Shown one piece after another: positions 2,701 through 11,332 of a stretch of 64,000 nt of DNA. This DNA is from a virus (lineage: Duplodnaviria; Caudoviricetes): positions 1-64,000 of IMG/VR virus record IMGVR_UViG_3300033120_000761. One strand, written 5' to 3'. How positions within the stretch are numbered: position 1 is the first letter of the stretch; every line of letters starts with the position of its first letter. A model generated the notes under the pieces. That model ran no database searches. It was not told the DNA's origin and worked only from the letters and a program-made list of their open reading frames with translations. The translations under genes were made by a program, and so were the position numbers.

Positions 2701-4577
2701 AGCCCCTTACCTTTTCCTTTCTTCTTTCCAGATCTCAGAGTTTTCATACATTCCATATAAAGACTTCCACGATCCCAAAATCTAGATCTTCTACCATCAA
2801 AGGCAAGATAGGTTCTACCACCTTCAACAAAACGGCCAGTGACTAAGAACTCTGCTCTAGGAGACATCGCCCCGTCTGAAACTCCACTCTCTGCTTCATC
2901 GGGAGTCATATCAGCATCATTCATCGGTCTGTGCATTAGGATAACTAAGTCAGCATCTTGGAAAATAGATGATGAACCTTTCATATCTTCGTTCTTAAGT
3001 TGTTTATTATTATTTGTTTTTCTCGGATGAGTAAGAAGACAAATAGTAATCCCAAGGTTTTCAGCTAAGAGCTTAAACATCTGAGTTGCTTTATCGATCA
3101 ATTCTTTTTCATTCTCACCACGACAAAGGAAGTGAAGGTTATCAAAGATAAAAAATTTGATTCCGTATCGTTGAACCATTTCGATAATAATCTTTTCAAC
3201 TTTATCTACTTCAAGTTCATCTCTCTGAGGATATCTAACATGAACTTTTTCATGAAATTTTCTCATCATGTAGTTGGCATATTTTCTATCGATGATAGTC
3301 ATATCCTCGAGCGTATTATAGTCTTGAGTCACCATCTGGATATATTTATGCGCGAGTGCTGGTGCTTTCATTTCACAAGAAAACATTCCAACGTGCTCAC
3401 CATAGTGATCAGAGATATGTCTTGCAAGATCTAGTGCCAGTGTTGTCTTACCGGCTTTAGGCTTACCACAAATTACAATTAAATTTCCTGGCTTAAACTT
3501 TCCAATGACCTTATTAAATTTAGGCCATGGAGTTTCAAAACCATTTACATCTGCTTCACCGTAATCAAGGTTATTCCAAAGATCTCTAACGGCAGACTTA
3601 ATCGTAACAACGCCCTCAACCTCAAAGGGTCTAGACTTTTTCGCAAGCTCTAAGAACTCACCTTTAGAATACTTCTGAATGAAATCATTTGGATCTTTTA
3701 CATCATCTGGAAGAATGATATTAAAACATCTCCCTAGACCTAATTGTGAGGCGATTTTACGAGCACCTTTTTGTCCCGCCTCATCTCTATCAAGAACTAG
3801 GTAAATGCGCTCATAACGAAGCAGACGATCTTTCCAGCCCTGTTTAAAAGCATCAGCACCTGTCGTTAATCCAACATTGTTCTTAATTCCTAATTCCCAT
3901 AAAGAAATTGTATCGATCTCTGATTCCGTGATGAACATTTCTTTATAGTCCATTTCGTTCAGAACATCTTCATTGAATAGGATGGAAACCCCACCTTTTT
4001 CTCTGCGCCACTTTTTCTTTTTAGGAATTTCAGGATCTAATGAGCGATATTTAATGTTCATACATTTGCCTTCCCTTAGATAAGGAATAGCTAAATGTTC
4101 TCCGGCATTATATTTTTCAATATCGCCATCTTCATTTCTGAATGTAAAAATAGATTTAGATCCAAGCTTAAAGTGTTCAACTGCTTCTTTAGTGATCTTT
4201 CTTTCATTCTTAAGATATTTATAGGCAGTGGTCTTTTTTGTATTTCTTAATTGCTTATGAAATTTTAAATGAAGATCATGCTTGATAGTGCATTTATCTT
4301 CACGCTTATCTTTTTCAGCAGATTCTACGGTTTTTACTTTATCTTTATTAATCCATGCCCAAGATAAATTTTGAGCTTTCTTTCCACTTGTTCCGCAATT
4401 GAAGCAACGCCAAGGCTGTTCACCTTTTTCATCCGGCTCAATTACAATTCCAAGACGCTCTCTTTGATCAGTACAAAGAAAACAGTTCATCTGATAATGA
4501 GTATCAGTTTTTGTAAACTTGATATCATGCTCTTTCATGAACTCTAAAATATTAAATGACTTATTACGTTTCATCAT
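2697..4577 (-). CDS. Bifunctional primase-helicase (Zn finger + TOPRIM + DnaB-like helicase)
   Basis: CFLC...CFNC zinc motif; TOPRIM ITESEID and LVLDRDEAG; Walker A GKPKAGKT; FIFDNLH; HPRK...DMKGSSSIFQDAD. Confidence 0.95.
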   Translation of the reverse strand: MMKRNKSFNILEFMKEHDIKFTKTDTHYQMNCFLCTDQRERLGIVIEPDEKGEQPWRCFNCGTSGKKAQNLSWAWINKDKVKTVESAEKDKREDKCTIKHDLHLKFHKQLRNTKKTTAYKYLKNERKITKEAVEHFKLGSKSIFTFRNEDGDIEKYNAGEHLAIPYLREGKCMNIKYRSLDPEIPKKKKWRREKGGVSILFNEDVLNEMDYKEMFITESEIDTISLWELGIKNNVGLTTGADAFKQGWKDRLLRYERIYLVLDRDEAGQKGARKIASQLGLGRCFNIILPDDVKDPNDFIQKYSKGEFLELAKKSRPFEVEGVVTIKSAVRDLWNNLDYGEADVNGFETPWPKFNKVIGKFKPGNLIVICGKPKAGKTTLALDLARHISDHYGEHVGMFSCEMKAPALAHKYIQMVTQDYNTLEDMTIIDRKYANYMMRKFHEKVHVRYPQRDELEVDKVEKIIIEMVQRYGIKFFIFDNLHFLCRGENEKELIDKATQMFKLLAENLGITICLLTHPRKTNNNKQLKNEDMKGSSSIFQDADLVILMHRPMNDADMTPDEAESGVSDGAMSPRAEFLVTGRFVEGGRTYLAFDGRRSRFWDRGSLYMECMKTLRSGKKKGKGKGL

Positions 4578-6540: not shown

Positions 6541-8094
6541 CTAGTTCTCCTTTTTTCTTATTATTAAGTTGGTATCGACACTTGTTTTAACCCATGTAAC
6601 TACTTCTTTCCCATAATGCTCACGAACTTTATTTGCGGCCTCTCTAGAGTTTTCGTTCTTATCAACGATAACGTCCCAAGTGGGAACAGGCTTCAAATGA
6701 CCGAAGAAAGCTTCTTGTTTCTCTGAATATGTTCTTTCGATTCTTCCTTTAGTTTGGTTGAATCGTTCAATATTATTTCCCTGCGGTGTTGTGATAATCC
6801 CGTGATCAAAAGTTCTTACTGATAATCCAACTTCTGCTTTTTGGGTTGCTACAACATAATCAATATTCTTAGTCTCTGCTAATTCAAGGATTCTCTTATA
6901 GGCAGTATCCTCATCATAGTCTTCAATAATTTCTTTAATACGAGAGGGAGCATTAACGATCTCAGGATCTTTCATGTTGAATTTACCTAAGAGCATATCG
7001 CCTCTAAATTTAGACAACATCTTATAGATAACTGCTGCCTGAACTTTTCTTTCAACAAAAATGATAACTAACTTACCTTCTCTAATTTTTCTAATCGCAC
7101 GTTTGCAGATCAAAATATTACGATCTTTATCTTGGCTGGCACGAGTAATGTAGGCAGAATAATTTTTCTCAAGATCATATTCGATATCGTAGTAATCACT
7201 TTTAACAAGTGAGATCCTAGATAGAATTTTTGATCCTGAATTCTGTTCTTTCGCTATAAACTTCACAGGTCCAAAGGTATCAAAGGTTAAAACCTCTTTT
7301 CCATCTTTACGAGTTAAGTTAGCAGAGGCCGTATAACGAAATCTGGCGCGAAATTTATTAGTAACTGTTTGAACATCTTCGATAGGAGACTTCTGCCCCT
7401 CATCGAAAAAAATTAATCCAACTTTCTCTTTATATACTTCAAGATGCTTTTCATTAGCGAGTGAGTGATAGAGACAAATATTTACCTTTCCTAATCTGGC
7501 CTTAGCTTTAAAAACTCCACCTACTCCACCGATATCAGCTTTCTTCATATTGAATAATTTAGGATCTAAACAAGCTTCTATCCATTGTTCCTGGAGGAAA
7601 GTCGTATGCACGATCACAAGGGCCGGTTGACGCTTTCTTCTGATCATTTCAAGGTATGTTACTGTCTTACCGAATGAGGCATAAGCAACAGCAGAAGCAT
7701 CATCAAATACTTCTACTGCGTCTAATAACTCTTCTTGATCCTCGCGCGGAACGATGTTTGAGTGCTCGAAGGACACCGATGGGAGGACCAGAGTTCTATC
7801 AATGAAATTAGGAATTAATTTAAACTTCTTAAAATGCTTAATCAGTTTTTCTTTACCACCACGAGAGATGCAGAGCTGATTATCCTCATCGATCTCATAA
7901 CTCATTAGATATTTTTTAGTCTTAAAGTTACTTCGGCCGTATTTTTCATTCTCAATATATTTAGGATTCTTATATCTGAATAAGTCTTTGGTCGTCTCAA
8001 GAATTGTTTTACCGTTTTCCAGTTTCAACAATCTTCTTACGCTAATGATCAATGTCGATTCGATTATTACATCGATTGATTGAATCTTTTCCAA
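6541..8094 (-). CDS. Superfamily 2 DNA helicase
   Basis: Walker A-like AYASFGKT, FFDEGQK, TAS motif III, QTKGRIER motif VI; TTG start with GAGAGG 8 nt upstream. Confidence 0.88.
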   Translation of the reverse strand: MEKIQSIDVIIESTLIISVRRLLKLENGKTILETTKDLFRYKNPKYIENEKYGRSNFKTKKYLMSYEIDEDNQLCISRGGKEKLIKHFKKFKLIPNFIDRTLVLPSVSFEHSNIVPREDQEELLDAVEVFDDASAVAYASFGKTVTYLEMIRRKRQPALVIVHTTFLQEQWIEACLDPKLFNMKKADIGGVGGVFKAKARLGKVNICLYHSLANEKHLEVYKEKVGLIFFDEGQKSPIEDVQTVTNKFRARFRYTASANLTRKDGKEVLTFDTFGPVKFIAKEQNSGSKILSRISLVKSDYYDIEYDLEKNYSAYITRASQDKDRNILICKRAIRKIREGKLVIIFVERKVQAAVIYKMLSKFRGDMLLGKFNMKDPEIVNAPSRIKEIIEDYDEDTAYKRILELAETKNIDYVVATQKAEVGLSVRTFDHGIITTPQGNNIERFNQTKGRIERTYSEKQEAFFGHLKPVPTWDVIVDKNENSREAANKVREHYGKEVVTWVKTSVDTNLIIRKKEN

Positions 8095-8139
8095 AGTGTA
8101 AACCTCTCTAAACTTTTGGATGAATGAATGTACTTTGGA

Positions 8140-8169
8140 AGATTAGATCTTTTTGGGTAGCTATTACAA
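8140..8169 (-). promoter_or_regulatory. Putative sigma70-type promoter for the replication operon
   Basis: TTGTAA-N18-TAATCT on the minus strand; the spacer contains AAAAAGAT, as do the promoters at 9769-9797 and near 35067-35096. Confidence 0.45.
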
Positions 8170-8279
8170 GGATGAAAAAATAAATATTACGAGTCTTCAT
8201 TGTTTCCGAATATTTAATTTGAAACTAGTTTCATGACTCGGAAGTAATAAGTTTGTGACTGAATTTTTTGATCAACTTA

Positions 8280-8351
8280 TGGTGGCCCGTGGATTTTCGA
8301 ATTACCACTTCTGCAATCGATGAGCAGCGTTACCATTTAAACTACCGAGCC
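8280..8351 (-). pseudogene. Degenerate tRNA (anticodon unresolved, possibly UCG)
   Basis: 72 nt with a GGCUCG/CGGGCC acceptor, ACCA end, UGGUA D-loop and UUCGA T-loop, but broken T stem and a non-canonical anticodon loop. Confidence 0.55.
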
Positions 8352-8358
8352 ATAAAAT

Positions 8359-8531
8359 TGGTGGGCTGGAGAAGGAGTCGAACCCTATAGTAAAAGCCAC
8401 TTCATCCGCTACATCTGACATCTATTCTAGCTTCGATGGCAGACTCTATATTTCTCGTCTTGGGAAAGCCTACTCACTGATGATCAATCAATTTTCAAAG
8501 TCCCACGTCTTTACCTATTAGACTACAGCCC
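8359..8531 (-). ncRNA. Expanded 173-nt tRNA-like RNA (Gln-like CUUUGAA loop, large insertions)
   Basis: GGGCUG/CAGCCC acceptor + ACCA, GUCU/AGAC D arm, GGUUCGACUCC T arm; about 95 extra nt between the anticodon loop and the T arm. Confidence 0.75.
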
Positions 8532-8762
8532 ATAATGAGAAATCAGATTAAACTGAGTTTAATTTTATGTCTAGAATTTTCTGAAATCGATCTGATGTAT
8601 GTTTAGACTAGACTTGAGGATCGCGACAATCACTTTAAAGACGGTAACTTGAAAATTATACATACATGGGCGCATTTTGCTAAGATCATGTCTAGACATG
8701 GAAATGTAATCTTCTACTTACATTTTATCAATGAGAGTGGGTTTTGTAAGCGATACCTTACA

Positions 8763-8837
8763 TGGTTAGCCTAGAAGGAATTGAACCTTCGACTTCTTCC
8801 TTATCAGGGAAGTACTCTACCACTGAGTTACAGGCTA
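8763..8837 (-). tRNA. tRNA-Ile(GAU)
   Basis: Full cloverleaf; CUUCC-CUGAUAA-GGAAG anticodon arm; encoded CCA. Confidence 0.95.
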
Positions 8838-8845
8838 ATATGAAA

Positions 8846-8922
8846 TGGTTGCGGAAGAAAGACTTGAACTTTCGACCTAACGCTTATGAGGCGTTCGCTC
8901 TGACCAACTGAGCTATTCCGCA
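8846..8922 (-). tRNA. tRNA with CAU anticodon (Met, or lysidine-modified Ile2)
   Basis: Full cloverleaf; AACGC-CUCAUAA-GCGUU; U1-A72 pair, so not initiator-type; encoded CCA. Confidence 0.92.
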
Positions 8923-8945
8923 AAATGATACGATACGTGTAAAAA

Positions 8946-9022
8946 TGGTTGGCAAGGAAGGACTCGAACCTTCACATACGGGAATCAAAATCCCGGGACT
9001 TAACCAATTTGTCGACCTGCCA
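8946..9022 (-). tRNA. tRNA-Gln(UUG)
   Basis: CGGGA-UUUUGAU-UCCCG anticodon arm; U1-A72; encoded CCA. Confidence 0.92.
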
Positions 9023-9072
9023 AAAACTATAAACGTAATTAAGAAACTCTATAATTAACCTTTTTATCAAAA

Positions 9073-9149
9073 TGGCGGGTAGTAAAGGACTTGAACCTTT
9101 GACCTGTCGCTTAACAAGCGAATGCTCTAACCAACTGAGCTAACCACCC
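9073..9149 (-). tRNA. tRNA-Asn(GUU)
   Basis: Cloverleaf with UUGUUAA loop; GCCA end. Confidence 0.94.
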
Positions 9150-9152
9150 TAA

Positions 9153-9230
9153 TGGCGCGATGTATCGGATTTGAACCGATGACCTCTTCCGTGACAGGGA
9201 AGCGTGAACTCCAGACTTCACCAACACCGC
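9153..9230 (-). tRNA. tRNA-Asp(GUC)
   Basis: CUUCC-CUGUCAC-GGAAG; GCCA end. Confidence 0.94.
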
Positions 9231-9249
9231 ATTAAATTTTAAAGAACAA

Positions 9250-9333
9250 TGGTGCTCGATAAAGGACTCGAACCTTTACACCTTACGGCCTCAGATTCTA
9301 AGTCTGAGTTGTCTACCATTCCAGCAATCGAGC
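9250..9333 (-). tRNA. tRNA-Leu(UAG)
   Basis: UCAGA-CUUAGAA-UCUGA; long variable arm; ACCA end. Confidence 0.94.
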
Positions 9334-9355
9334 AAAATTTTAAAGATCATAAAAA

Positions 9356-9431
9356 TGGTCAGAGCGGTGGGGATCGAACCCACGACCTCAAGAATCCAAG
9401 TCTTGCCATCTACCGCTGATTTTACGCCCTG
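9356..9431 (-). tRNA. tRNA-Pro(UGG)
   Basis: CAAGA-CUUGGAU-UCUUG; C1-G72; ACCA end. Confidence 0.93.
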
Positions 9432-9533
9432 ACAAAAAACGTTACGAAAATCCAGTAACACTTAGTAACGTTACGAGATTTCATAACAACTGCTAACATC
9501 GTACCTTTTTACTCCACTAGTTCTATCTAGTGG

Positions 9534-9610
9534 TGGTGGAATCGACAGGACTTGAACCTGCAACCCTCTGCGTGCAAGGCAGATGCTCTACCAATTGTAG
9601 CTACGACCCC
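9534..9610 (-). tRNA. tRNA-Ala(UGC)
   Basis: UCUGC-CUUGCAC-GCAGA; G3-U70 Ala identity pair; ACCA end. Confidence 0.96.
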
Positions 9611-9617
9611 ATAAACG

Positions 9618-9647
9618 AAAAAAGCCCGGGAGATTAATCCTGGGCTT
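9618..9647 (-). terminator. Intrinsic terminator (attenuator) 7 nt upstream of the first tRNA
   Basis: AAGCCC-A-GGA/UUAAUC/UCC-C-GGGCUU hairpin ending in a U6 tract on the minus strand. Confidence 0.85.
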
Positions 9648-9679
9648 CATATTTAGTTTCTTAATTTTGTATTTCTACT

Positions 9680-9760
9680 TTAAGCGCCTAATATAAATCC
9701 CACGATGATCATCTGATCATTCATCTGTGCGGGGATAATATTGGCTGTTAGCTTTTTCAT
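9680..9760 (-). CDS. Putative attenuator leader peptide MKKLTANIIPAQMNDQMIIVGFILGA (26 aa; not in the ORF track)
   Basis: ATG at 9760, TAA at 9682-9680; lies between the promoter and the terminator; its last codons can pair with the terminator 5' arm. Confidence 0.75.
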   Translation of the reverse strand: MKKLTANIIPAQMNDQMIIVGFILGA

Positions 9761-9768
9761 ATTTGGAA

Positions 9769-9797
9769 AGGATAGTTGATCTTTTTTATTATTGCAA
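9769..9797 (-). promoter_or_regulatory. Sigma70-type promoter of the tRNA array
   Basis: TTGCAA-N17-TATCCT; the -10 box ends 8 nt before the leader ATG, implying a leaderless or near-leaderless mRNA. Confidence 0.75.
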
Positions 9798-10045
9798 GTG
9801 GGTTTGCGCTTTTTCTAATATTATCCAAAAGCCTCGGTGGAAAAACCTGAGTCCACTAATCGTGGGGTTTTAACCTTCGACCATTTACCGTTGTGATAAT
9901 TATCTCTACTGTTCGTAGAGCAATTCTAACAACTTGACTATAAAACAGTCAAAATTTTGGATATAGGAGAGTATCTGAATGTAGAAATCATTATTTCTGA
10001 GACTCCGTCTCTTTATTTTTGATTGAAATTAATTGCCTTAATGTG

Positions 10046-10074
10046 TTGATGAAATTTAAAATAGTGGATACGAT
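10046..10074 (+). promoter_or_regulatory. Putative sigma70-type promoter for the plus-strand region
   Basis: TTGATG-N17-TACGAT upstream of the first plus-strand gene. Confidence 0.5.
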
Positions 10075-10141
10075 TTTTTGAGAATTAGAGAGAAGCTACC
10101 TACGAAAGTTCCTTCTCTCTAAAAAATAGAGAATATTCACA

Positions 10142-11332
10142 ATGAAAGATTACCAAGATTCAAAATCAAAAACAATTAAAAAGCTTATTAAAAGTAGTCT
10201 TTTTTTTGAAATTCCTTTGGTTAAAGAAAACTCTGATCAATTCATTTCCTTCTGCTCTGCTAAGAACCTAAAAACACTAAGACCATTTCTTAAGACCGTT
10301 AAACAACCAGAAGATCTTCCTCTTCCAAAACTTAAAAAACTATTCTTTGTTTTCTTAATCGCTAAGAAACCAGAGCTTTTTATTACCAAGTGGCAGCTAT
10401 GTTCTACTTTTTATGGAAAACAATTAGAGGTAAACTCTGCGACTGTTATCAATTGGCTTAAGGAATTAATGAAATTAGAGTGGCTAAAATGCACTTCAAA
10501 AGCCTTTTATGAGGGATCTCAATCAAGAAGTTATACGATTGAGAAGACCGATAAGAACCAATCTTTCACCGACATGATCAATGACTTCAATGGATTTAAG
10601 AAGAAATATCCAGGAGTAAAAAAGAACGAAACCGTTATTAAGATCAGAAAAGAAAGAATCAAAAAATTCCCATTTACCTCTTATCGTGTTGAAAATTGCT
10701 GTTATCTAGCTCAATCATATCTAGATAAACCGGAAGAATACCTAAAGCTTTTTATGCAAAAACGTTTTGATTTCTTTAATTTTTCTCCAAGAACTCAAAA
10801 TCCATCTGAGATAAATCTAAAATCTGCTGTGATAGCCTTCAATTATGTAATGAAAAGAAATAATAGAAAGAGTAGAATTAACAATAAGCTTTTAGAATCT
10901 ATGGGAATTTTTGATCTAAAATCATTTATTGGCGAACATAGAAAAGCATCAAAACTAGAAAAGAAAAGGCTGGTCCAAGTAAAGAATCATGCCATGATCA
11001 CCGTTCAATTAGCCCCAGGACTCAAGAAAACTCGTCAGGCCATCCAAGATATTGCAACTGTCGACTTAGCCTTTACGGGTGGTTTTGATTTTGAACTAGG
11101 TAAGGTCCGTCATAGAAAAATAGAAATTAGTTCAAATAACTATGCCCTTATGGTGGCCGGAAAACTTCTAACGATGCGAGTACCAAAAGAAGTCTACTCG
11201 AGCACTGCGAAAAACCTTATTCATGAATTACCGGATAAGATTTCATTAAATCCAGCGAATATGAAAAAACTCCAATCCCTAAAACCATATTACTCAACTT
11301 ACAGAGCGAGAACGCGAACTCTCTCAGCTTAG
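10142..11332 (+). CDS. Basic protein with a winged-helix-like segment (possible replication/origin-binding protein)
   Basis: FYGKQLEVNSATVINWLKELMKLEWLKCTSKAFYEGSQSRSYTI resembles an HTH plus wing; first gene after the strand switch. Confidence 0.5.
   Translation: MKDYQDSKSKTIKKLIKSSLFFEIPLVKENSDQFISFCSAKNLKTLRPFLKTVKQPEDLPLPKLKKLFFVFLIAKKPELFITKWQLCSTFYGKQLEVNSATVINWLKELMKLEWLKCTSKAFYEGSQSRSYTIEKTDKNQSFTDMINDFNGFKKKYPGVKKNETVIKIRKERIKKFPFTSYRVENCCYLAQSYLDKPEEYLKLFMQKRFDFFNFSPRTQNPSEINLKSAVIAFNYVMKRNNRKSRINNKLLESMGIFDLKSFIGEHRKASKLEKKRLVQVKNHAMITVQLAPGLKKTRQAIQDIATVDLAFTGGFDFELGKVRHRKIEISSNNYALMVAGKLLTMRVPKEVYSSTAKNLIHELPDKISLNPANMKKLQSLKPYYSTYRARTRTLSA

Follow-up and report, generated by a model that had tools for sequence, protein, structure and literature searches.

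The tRNA array and its leader

Here we describe a short cassette that precedes a phage tRNA array and that we read as a candidate leader-peptide transcription attenuator. The cassette lies in IMG/VR record IMGVR_UViG_3300033120_000761, whose full length is 86.5 kb and of which we analyzed positions 1-64,000 (the window; coordinates without another label refer to it). The window record has a G+C content of 36%, and its encoded proteins include a helicase, a primase-helicase, a terminase, and other phage proteins. Between two diverging blocks of genes there is a gap, 8095-10141, and in this gap eight tRNA genes stand in a row on the minus strand. In order, they are tRNA-Ala(tgc) at 9610-9534, tRNA-Pro(tgg), tRNA-Leu(tag), tRNA-Asp(gtc), tRNA-Asn(gtt), tRNA-Gln(ttg), a tRNA with a CAT anticodon (Met or Ile2), and tRNA-Ile(gat), and they are the only tRNAs in the entire record. 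An initial annotation of this DNA had proposed such an array on the minus strand, and ARAGORN and Rfam both call it. The parts of the cassette, from the promoter down to the array, are as follows.

9797-9769, minus strand: candidate sigma-70-type promoter, TTGCAA-17 nt-TATCCT, whose -10 hexamer ends 8 nt before the ATG.
9760-9680, minus strand: leader open reading frame (ORF) of 26 codons, in which codons 4 and 6-19 specify only amino acids of the downstream tRNAs.
9754-9730, minus strand: segment 1, leader codons 3-11, the 5′ strand of the 1:2 hairpin in the minimum-energy folds.
9706-9682, minus strand: segment 2, from the last leader codons to the stop codon, able to pair with segment 1 or with segment 3.
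9656-9638, minus strand: segment 3, the 5′ arm of the terminator with 8 nt of flank, able to pair with segment 2 (antiterminator) or with segment 4.
9648-9613, minus strand: intrinsic terminator, a hairpin at 9648-9621 and a U-run to 9613, ending 3 nt before tRNA-Ala.
9610-8763, minus strand: array of eight tRNA genes (ARAGORN, and Rfam RF00005 at 44-72 bits), the unit that would be regulated.

The ORF, which the initial annotation had also reported, is distinguished by the amino acids that it encodes. All eight amino acids of the array occur in it, and array amino acids fill 18 of the 25 positions after Met1 against a background of 0.41 (binomial P=0.0017), which is the sum of these eight amino acids in the phage's own amino-acid frequencies. 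At those frequencies an uninterrupted run of 14 matching residues, such as that in codons 6-19, has a probability of 0.41^14, or about 4e-6 per position, so the earlier claim that the run is improbable by chance stands on this count.

The terminator that had been proposed before tRNA-Ala is present too. Its hairpin has 10 pairs, six of them G-C, with one A.C mismatch and a folding energy of -13.9 kcal/mol. A consensus scanner lists this hairpin on the plus strand only (9622-9647), where the A.C mismatch becomes G.U and gives the better helix, and it might also stop antisense transcription.

Cassettes in related phages

Relatives of the window phage were located via homologues of the helicase adjacent to the array. 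The two nearest, L002 (helicase identity 70%) and L003 (63%), have the same gene order and carry tRNAs in the same gap, and these three phages are the only ones with tRNAs beside the helicase. In more distant relatives the corresponding gap has neither tRNAs nor a terminator, and where the whole record was searched there are no tRNAs at all. When viral and metagenome contigs were scanned with a helicase profile, the only matches were distant relatives that lack tRNAs; a search of a phage collection gave generic tRNA matches only, and exact-pattern and single-protein scans of viral contigs gave no matches. The three phages hold four array heads, since L003 has two units on opposite strands (L003a and L003b), and all four heads carry the same succession of promoter, mini-ORF, and terminator. 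The three cassettes outside the window are these.

L002: ORF of 23 codons, with NNTPAIQN in codons 7-14, and a hairpin with a U-run, before Ala-Pro-Asn-Gln-Ile-Thr.
L003a: ORF of 18 codons, with DWD, and a terminator, before Asp-Trp.
L003b: ORF of 19 codons, with NGNNYNQNNQ in codons 5-14, and a terminator, before Asn-Gln and, farther on, a CAT tRNA.

With a single detector, each of the four array heads shows a hairpin and U-run whose end lies 8-27 nt before the tRNA, and none of the 16 other tRNAs of the clade shows one; in three unrelated phages (RTH11, Phass-1, and Bestia), the 90 nt upstream of a tRNA hold a terminator-like hairpin in at most 1 of 60 cases. Because the interval between terminator and tRNA is too short for a promoter, the arrays can be reached only by read-through.

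The initial annotation had suggested that leader codons be compared with array content in related phages, and the comparison yields, along with three further cassettes with different tRNA sets, mini-ORFs that differ correspondingly. The contrast is sharpest inside L003, where the Asp-Trp unit has a leader with DWD and the Asn-Gln unit has a leader with six Asn and two Gln in ten codons, Asp and Trp being absent. Trp is found in the leader that stands ahead of the only tRNA-Trp. Two disjoint tRNA sets with two disjoint enrichments in one genome are hard to ascribe to composition. The window and L002 leaders both begin with MK(K/R)L, have PA near the middle, and end in hydrophobic residues. When the four leader regions were aligned with MAFFT, the ATGs did not align, and we claim no homology at the nucleotide level beyond short motifs. 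The agreement of each leader with its own array was scored in three ways.

Binomial P, whole peptide: window 0.0017, L002 0.07, L003a 0.14, L003b 0.00019.
Binomial P, codons 5-15: window 9e-4, L002 3e-3, L003a 0.049, L003b 1.4e-6.
Longest matched run, P against 497 small ORFs: window 0.002, L002 0.006, L003a 0.004, L003b 0.004.

The 497 small ORFs come from six frames of the same DNAs and include the four leaders, so the lowest attainable P is 0.002; the window leader, which alone among them reaches a matched run of 14, sits at that floor. Codons 2-15 of the four leaders, when pooled, contain 18 of 19 array amino acids, against 17 of 61 amino acids that are not in the array (Fisher P=1.8e-7). 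Random 14-mers taken after any ATG in six frames of the same DNAs cover 8.6 +/- 1.9 array amino acids and reach 18 in 0 of 200,000 draws, and the pooled count of matching residues, 30 of 56, likewise lies beyond all 200,000 (null 12.6 +/- 3.0). All of these P values are optimistic, because the codon window was picked after inspection of the data and because leaders that share MK(K/R)L are not fully independent. An argument from individual codons was dropped: the window has CUA at Leu4, cognate to tRNA-Leu(UAG), and L002 has UUA there, but L003b also has CUA at this place and no Leu tRNA.

One explanation of these matches is coincidence, in that AT-rich intergenic DNA yields small ORFs rich in Asn, Ile, Gln, and Lys together with many A-U pairings, and an observer may notice the agreement post hoc. 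The modest whole-peptide values of L002 and L003a are what such an explanation would lead one to expect, and the flank length used for the pairings, like the stall window, was chosen with the data in view. Against it stand the combined match, which appears in none of the 200,000 nulls drawn from these very DNAs, the Trp before the sole tRNA-Trp, and the terminators at four of four array heads compared with at most 1 of 60 control tRNAs. We therefore consider coincidence very improbable.

The start of the leader also recurs. In the four cassettes the ATG lies 6-9 nt past a -10-like hexamer, itself preceded at 16-18 nt by a -35-like hexamer, and the promoters match the consensus with scores of 8 (window) and 9 (L002, L003a, and L003b); among 2959 ATGs of the same DNAs, a score of at least 8 has a probability of 0.066 and a score of at least 9 a probability of 0.0125. 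None of the four leader ATGs is preceded by a Shine-Dalgarno sequence, which does stand upstream of 40 of the 86 long ORFs of the window. This placement of the ATG suggests that the leader mRNAs are leaderless or nearly so, as the initial annotation had claimed for the window and as the spacing in the related cassettes repeats. The leaders thus appear to differ from many ordinary genes of the phage in a way that leaderless translation would fit.

The missing Shine-Dalgarno sequence also leaves room for a switch that works without the peptide, since translation of the leader then depends on a putative leaderless start. In this alternative the leader is untranslated and the terminator is governed by a small RNA, by an antiterminator protein, or by the binding of tRNA, as in T-box riboswitches (RF00230). 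In T-boxes the choice between terminator and antiterminator is set by tRNA status, and they demonstrate that RNA alone can read that status; unlike the phage element, they bind uncharged tRNA directly and without translation, extend over ~200-300 nt, and control synthetase, transport, and biosynthesis genes. At about 100 nt, the phage leaders fall far short of T-box length, and within 7500-10500 only the tRNA family reaches its Rfam gathering score, with no T-box at E<=1. In addition, a frame open from the predicted 5′ end is kept in four of four cassettes, and the amino-acid meaning of its codons tracks the array; an untranslated RNA fits this poorly because it would have no reason to preserve that meaning. 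We regard an RNA-only or protein-dependent switch as improbable. A T-box riboswitch proper was rejected for lack of a covariance-model match, the scan of 7500-10500 at E<=1 having returned tRNAs and a few sub-threshold chance matches.

The loci hold several other features. Within the arrays there are two weak hairpins followed by U-runs, one in the tRNA-Ala/tRNA-Pro spacer of the window (9471-9434, minus strand) and one in the Pro/Asn spacer of L002 (about 3760-3795, plus strand); these elements could be partial terminators or processing sites, and read-through may be graded along the array. Past tRNA-Ile there is a promoter-like site at 8683-8655, which may independently drive the helicase and two odd tRNA-like elements that lie 3′ of the array on the minus strand. 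The first of these (8364-8530) is ~170 nt long, with large insertions and a CCA end, and scores 21.8 bits with the Rfam tRNA model (E=0.28), under the gathering score; the second (8281-8352) has a CCA end and an apparently oversized anticodon loop, and is not called by ARAGORN. A search for homologues of the adjoining 396-aa ORF detected none. Upstream, the best sigma-70-like site of the region, TTGACT-18 nt-TAGAAT with an upstream TG, matches 10 of 12 positions and lies 150 nt before the leader promoter (9923-9952, minus strand), and beyond it a short palindromic hairpin with a T-run is found on the plus strand (9999-10011).

An ARAGORN prediction in L002 (3284-3360, plus strand) is a tRNA whose anticodon, ttca, has four bases, as might befit a suppressor or a tRNA of the frameshift type. 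This tRNA is located shortly before the leader promoter and is not part of the unit that the attenuator would control, and no terminator precedes it. Intein and homing-endonuclease domains (LAGLIDADG, Hom_end, and Intein_splicing) occur in the helicase homologues P0023, P0029, P0030, and P0047 and in the DNA polymerase genes of the related phages L002 and L025. In the phage phiCbK (L030, JX100813 46800-53200), the GenBank annotation puts rho-independent terminators directly before three tRNA blocks; the small ORFs upstream are modestly enriched in two of the three (P=0.32; 0.002-0.1; 0.03-0.05), and we do not count them as support.

Alternative pairings of the leader RNA

Three alternative pairings can be drawn from the four segments of the window leader: a 1:2 hairpin, a 2:3 antiterminator, and the 3:4 terminator. 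The 1:2 hairpin, one of the structures in the initial annotation, is part of the predicted minimum-energy fold of all four leaders, and the upstream part of the window leader folds at -21.6 kcal/mol. The antiterminator claimed there, in which 9702-9690 pairs with 9653-9641 at 12 of 13 positions, also exists. As a duplex, measured in a second test that was used after an ensemble free-energy test had failed, the best window pairing (9706-9687 with 9656-9638) reaches -15.5 kcal/mol against -7.6 +/- 2.2 in 500 shuffles (P=0.002). Pairing of the upstream region with the 5′ arm and 8 nt of flank gives -11.5 kcal/mol in L002 (P=0.016), -13.2 in L003a (P=0.002), and -11.9 in L003b (P=0.028), again with 500 shuffles each, and in four of four cassettes the partner of the 5′ arm overlaps the region of the stop codon.

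We then folded the leaders with and without a ribosome, represented by a mask of 30 nt. In the prefix (kinetic) model, in which the leader is folded up to the terminator loop, the antiterminator pairing persists for ribosomes whose A site has come no farther than codon 13-15 and disappears for those farther along; segment 2 is masked when the A site has passed about codon 15 or stands at the stop codon. The range of stalling positions that leave the antiterminator free therefore coincides with the array-matched codons, as had been claimed. In full-length folds of the window, L002, and L003a, the RNA with no ribosome takes the terminator state with the 1:2 hairpin, a ribosome at codons 10-12 gives the open state, and a ribosome at the stop codon gives the terminator once more. 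This three-state pattern arose in 6 of 300 shuffles of the window, 8 of 300 of L002, and 4 of 300 of L003a. The attenuator switch proposed in the initial annotation is thus predicted by these folds in three cassettes, but not in L003b, where the terminator always wins at equilibrium.

From these pairings we infer the following sequence of events, in which translation of the ORF, stalling of the ribosome, read-through, and the physiological trigger are all deduced. Transcription would start a few nucleotides before the ATG at 9760, and a ribosome would translate the 26-codon leader while RNA polymerase heads for the terminator at 9648-9613. If decoding is fast, the ribosome at the end of the ORF would cover segment 2, the 3:4 terminator would form, and the tRNA genes would stay off. 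If decoding is slow at any of codons ~4-15, which would be read almost wholly by the array's own tRNAs, a scarcity of charged tRNA would stall the ribosome over segment 1, so that the 2:3 antiterminator forms and the polymerase reads through into the array. With no translation at all, the 1:2 and 3:4 hairpins would form together and transcription would terminate. The outcome would be negative feedback, in which the supply of phage tRNA is set by the measured speed of decoding.

The same parts could also belong to a terminator or insulator that is constitutively leaky, with the small ORF being either the gene of an independent small protein or incidental, and its composition having no regulatory role. 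Terminators with a fixed level of read-through are common, and the N-terminal motif and hydrophobic tail shared by the window and L002 peptides are what one would expect of a real small protein. One energy measure of the antiterminator stands at chance level, and the terminator of L003b is very stable. A leaky terminator would nevertheless leave unexplained why four otherwise unrelated mini-ORF peptides use the amino acids of their own arrays, why the stop-codon region pairs with the 5′ arm in four of four cassettes, and why a three-state switch appears in three of four. On balance, we think this explanation unlikely.

Probable attenuation of phage tRNA genes

The anatomy of the cassette, its recurrence, the co-variation of leaders with arrays, and the alternative pairings were established computationally, and taken together, with the comparison of related phages weighing most, they make it likely, in our judgement, that the element is a ribosome-mediated (leader-peptide) transcription attenuator that controls the phage tRNA array. 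To judge from its sequence, the phage probably makes the array tRNAs only when ribosomes are short of them.

A number of observations weigh against this interpretation. The window promoter is weak by consensus: the two hexamers of the initial annotation are in their place, but they match at only 8 of 12 positions and fall under the threshold of the scanner. The stall zone also holds residues for which the array has no tRNA, namely K, K, and T in the window and K, R, L, D, and H in L002. The MK(K/R)L start is common to the window, L002, and L003b leaders, and possible common ancestry makes them incompletely independent. The CAT-anticodon tRNA may be Ile2 instead of Met; if so, the window leader would lose its two Met codons as matches, and its 14-residue run would be broken at both. 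Given the weak hairpins with U-runs inside the arrays, control could extend over only part of each array. The L003b terminator (-19.5 kcal/mol) dominates every equilibrium state, and because it is so stable, only the kinetic (prefix) model yields a switch in that cassette. Finally, the ensemble free energy gained from upstream pairing of the terminator 5′ arm does not exceed that of dinucleotide shuffles (P=0.28-0.81).

Leader attenuators that respond to more than one amino acid are familiar from enterobacteria, where the ilvGMEDA leader carries Ile, Val, and Leu codons and the thr leader carries Thr and Ile codons; trpL, hisL, leuL, and pheL are further leaders of this kind. The phage cassette resembles the ilvGMEDA and thr leaders in having a promoter-proximal short ORF with regulatory codons and an intrinsic terminator before the first regulated gene, in its 1:2, 2:3, and 3:4 alternatives, where a stall in segment 1 favors the antiterminator and a ribosome at the stop codon favors termination, and in that a single leader would sense several amino acids. 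It differs from them in controlling tRNA genes and not biosynthetic enzymes, in listing up to eight amino acids, mostly once or twice each and with no long runs, in its apparently leaderless mRNA, and in its location in a phage; its output would replenish the sensed tRNA and not the amino acid. A further parallel is the E. coli pheM leader of pheST (phenylalanyl-tRNA synthetase), where attenuation acts on a component of the translation apparatus and the supply of charged tRNA is sensed, although pheM controls a synthetase, senses one amino acid, and belongs to a host gene. To our knowledge, the leader-peptide attenuators described so far all regulate either enzymes of amino-acid biosynthesis or an aminoacyl-tRNA synthetase, and our search of the full-text literature found no account, for phages or for bacteria, of tRNA genes controlled by leader-peptide attenuation. 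The proposed machinery matches trp/his/ilv attenuation, and what is new is its tRNA targets, its roster of many amino acids, and its apparently leaderless start.

Phage tRNA genes are usually viewed as constitutive helpers for codon usage, or as replacements for host tRNAs that defense systems have destroyed, and as far as we know the control of their expression has remained largely unknown. The trigger of the attenuator is a matter of speculation; host anticodon nucleases or toxins could supply it, and so, just as well, could general host shut-off or mismatched codon usage. A wider proposal, that the cassette is a multi-tRNA supply sensor which switches the phage tRNAs on when the host pool for any of ~8 codon families collapses (through anticodon nucleases, tRNA-modifying toxins, or host shut-off, for example), and that such attenuators form a widespread and undescribed layer of control, seems to us possible but doubtful.

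If the attenuator operates as we propose, the phage would gauge the speed of decoding codon by codon and make tRNAs on demand, and a classic regulatory principle would reach genes of a new class, the feedback acting on the very molecule that is sensed. Its sequence signature could then be used to annotate the tRNA regulons of phages and to predict for which tRNAs a phage anticipates a shortage.

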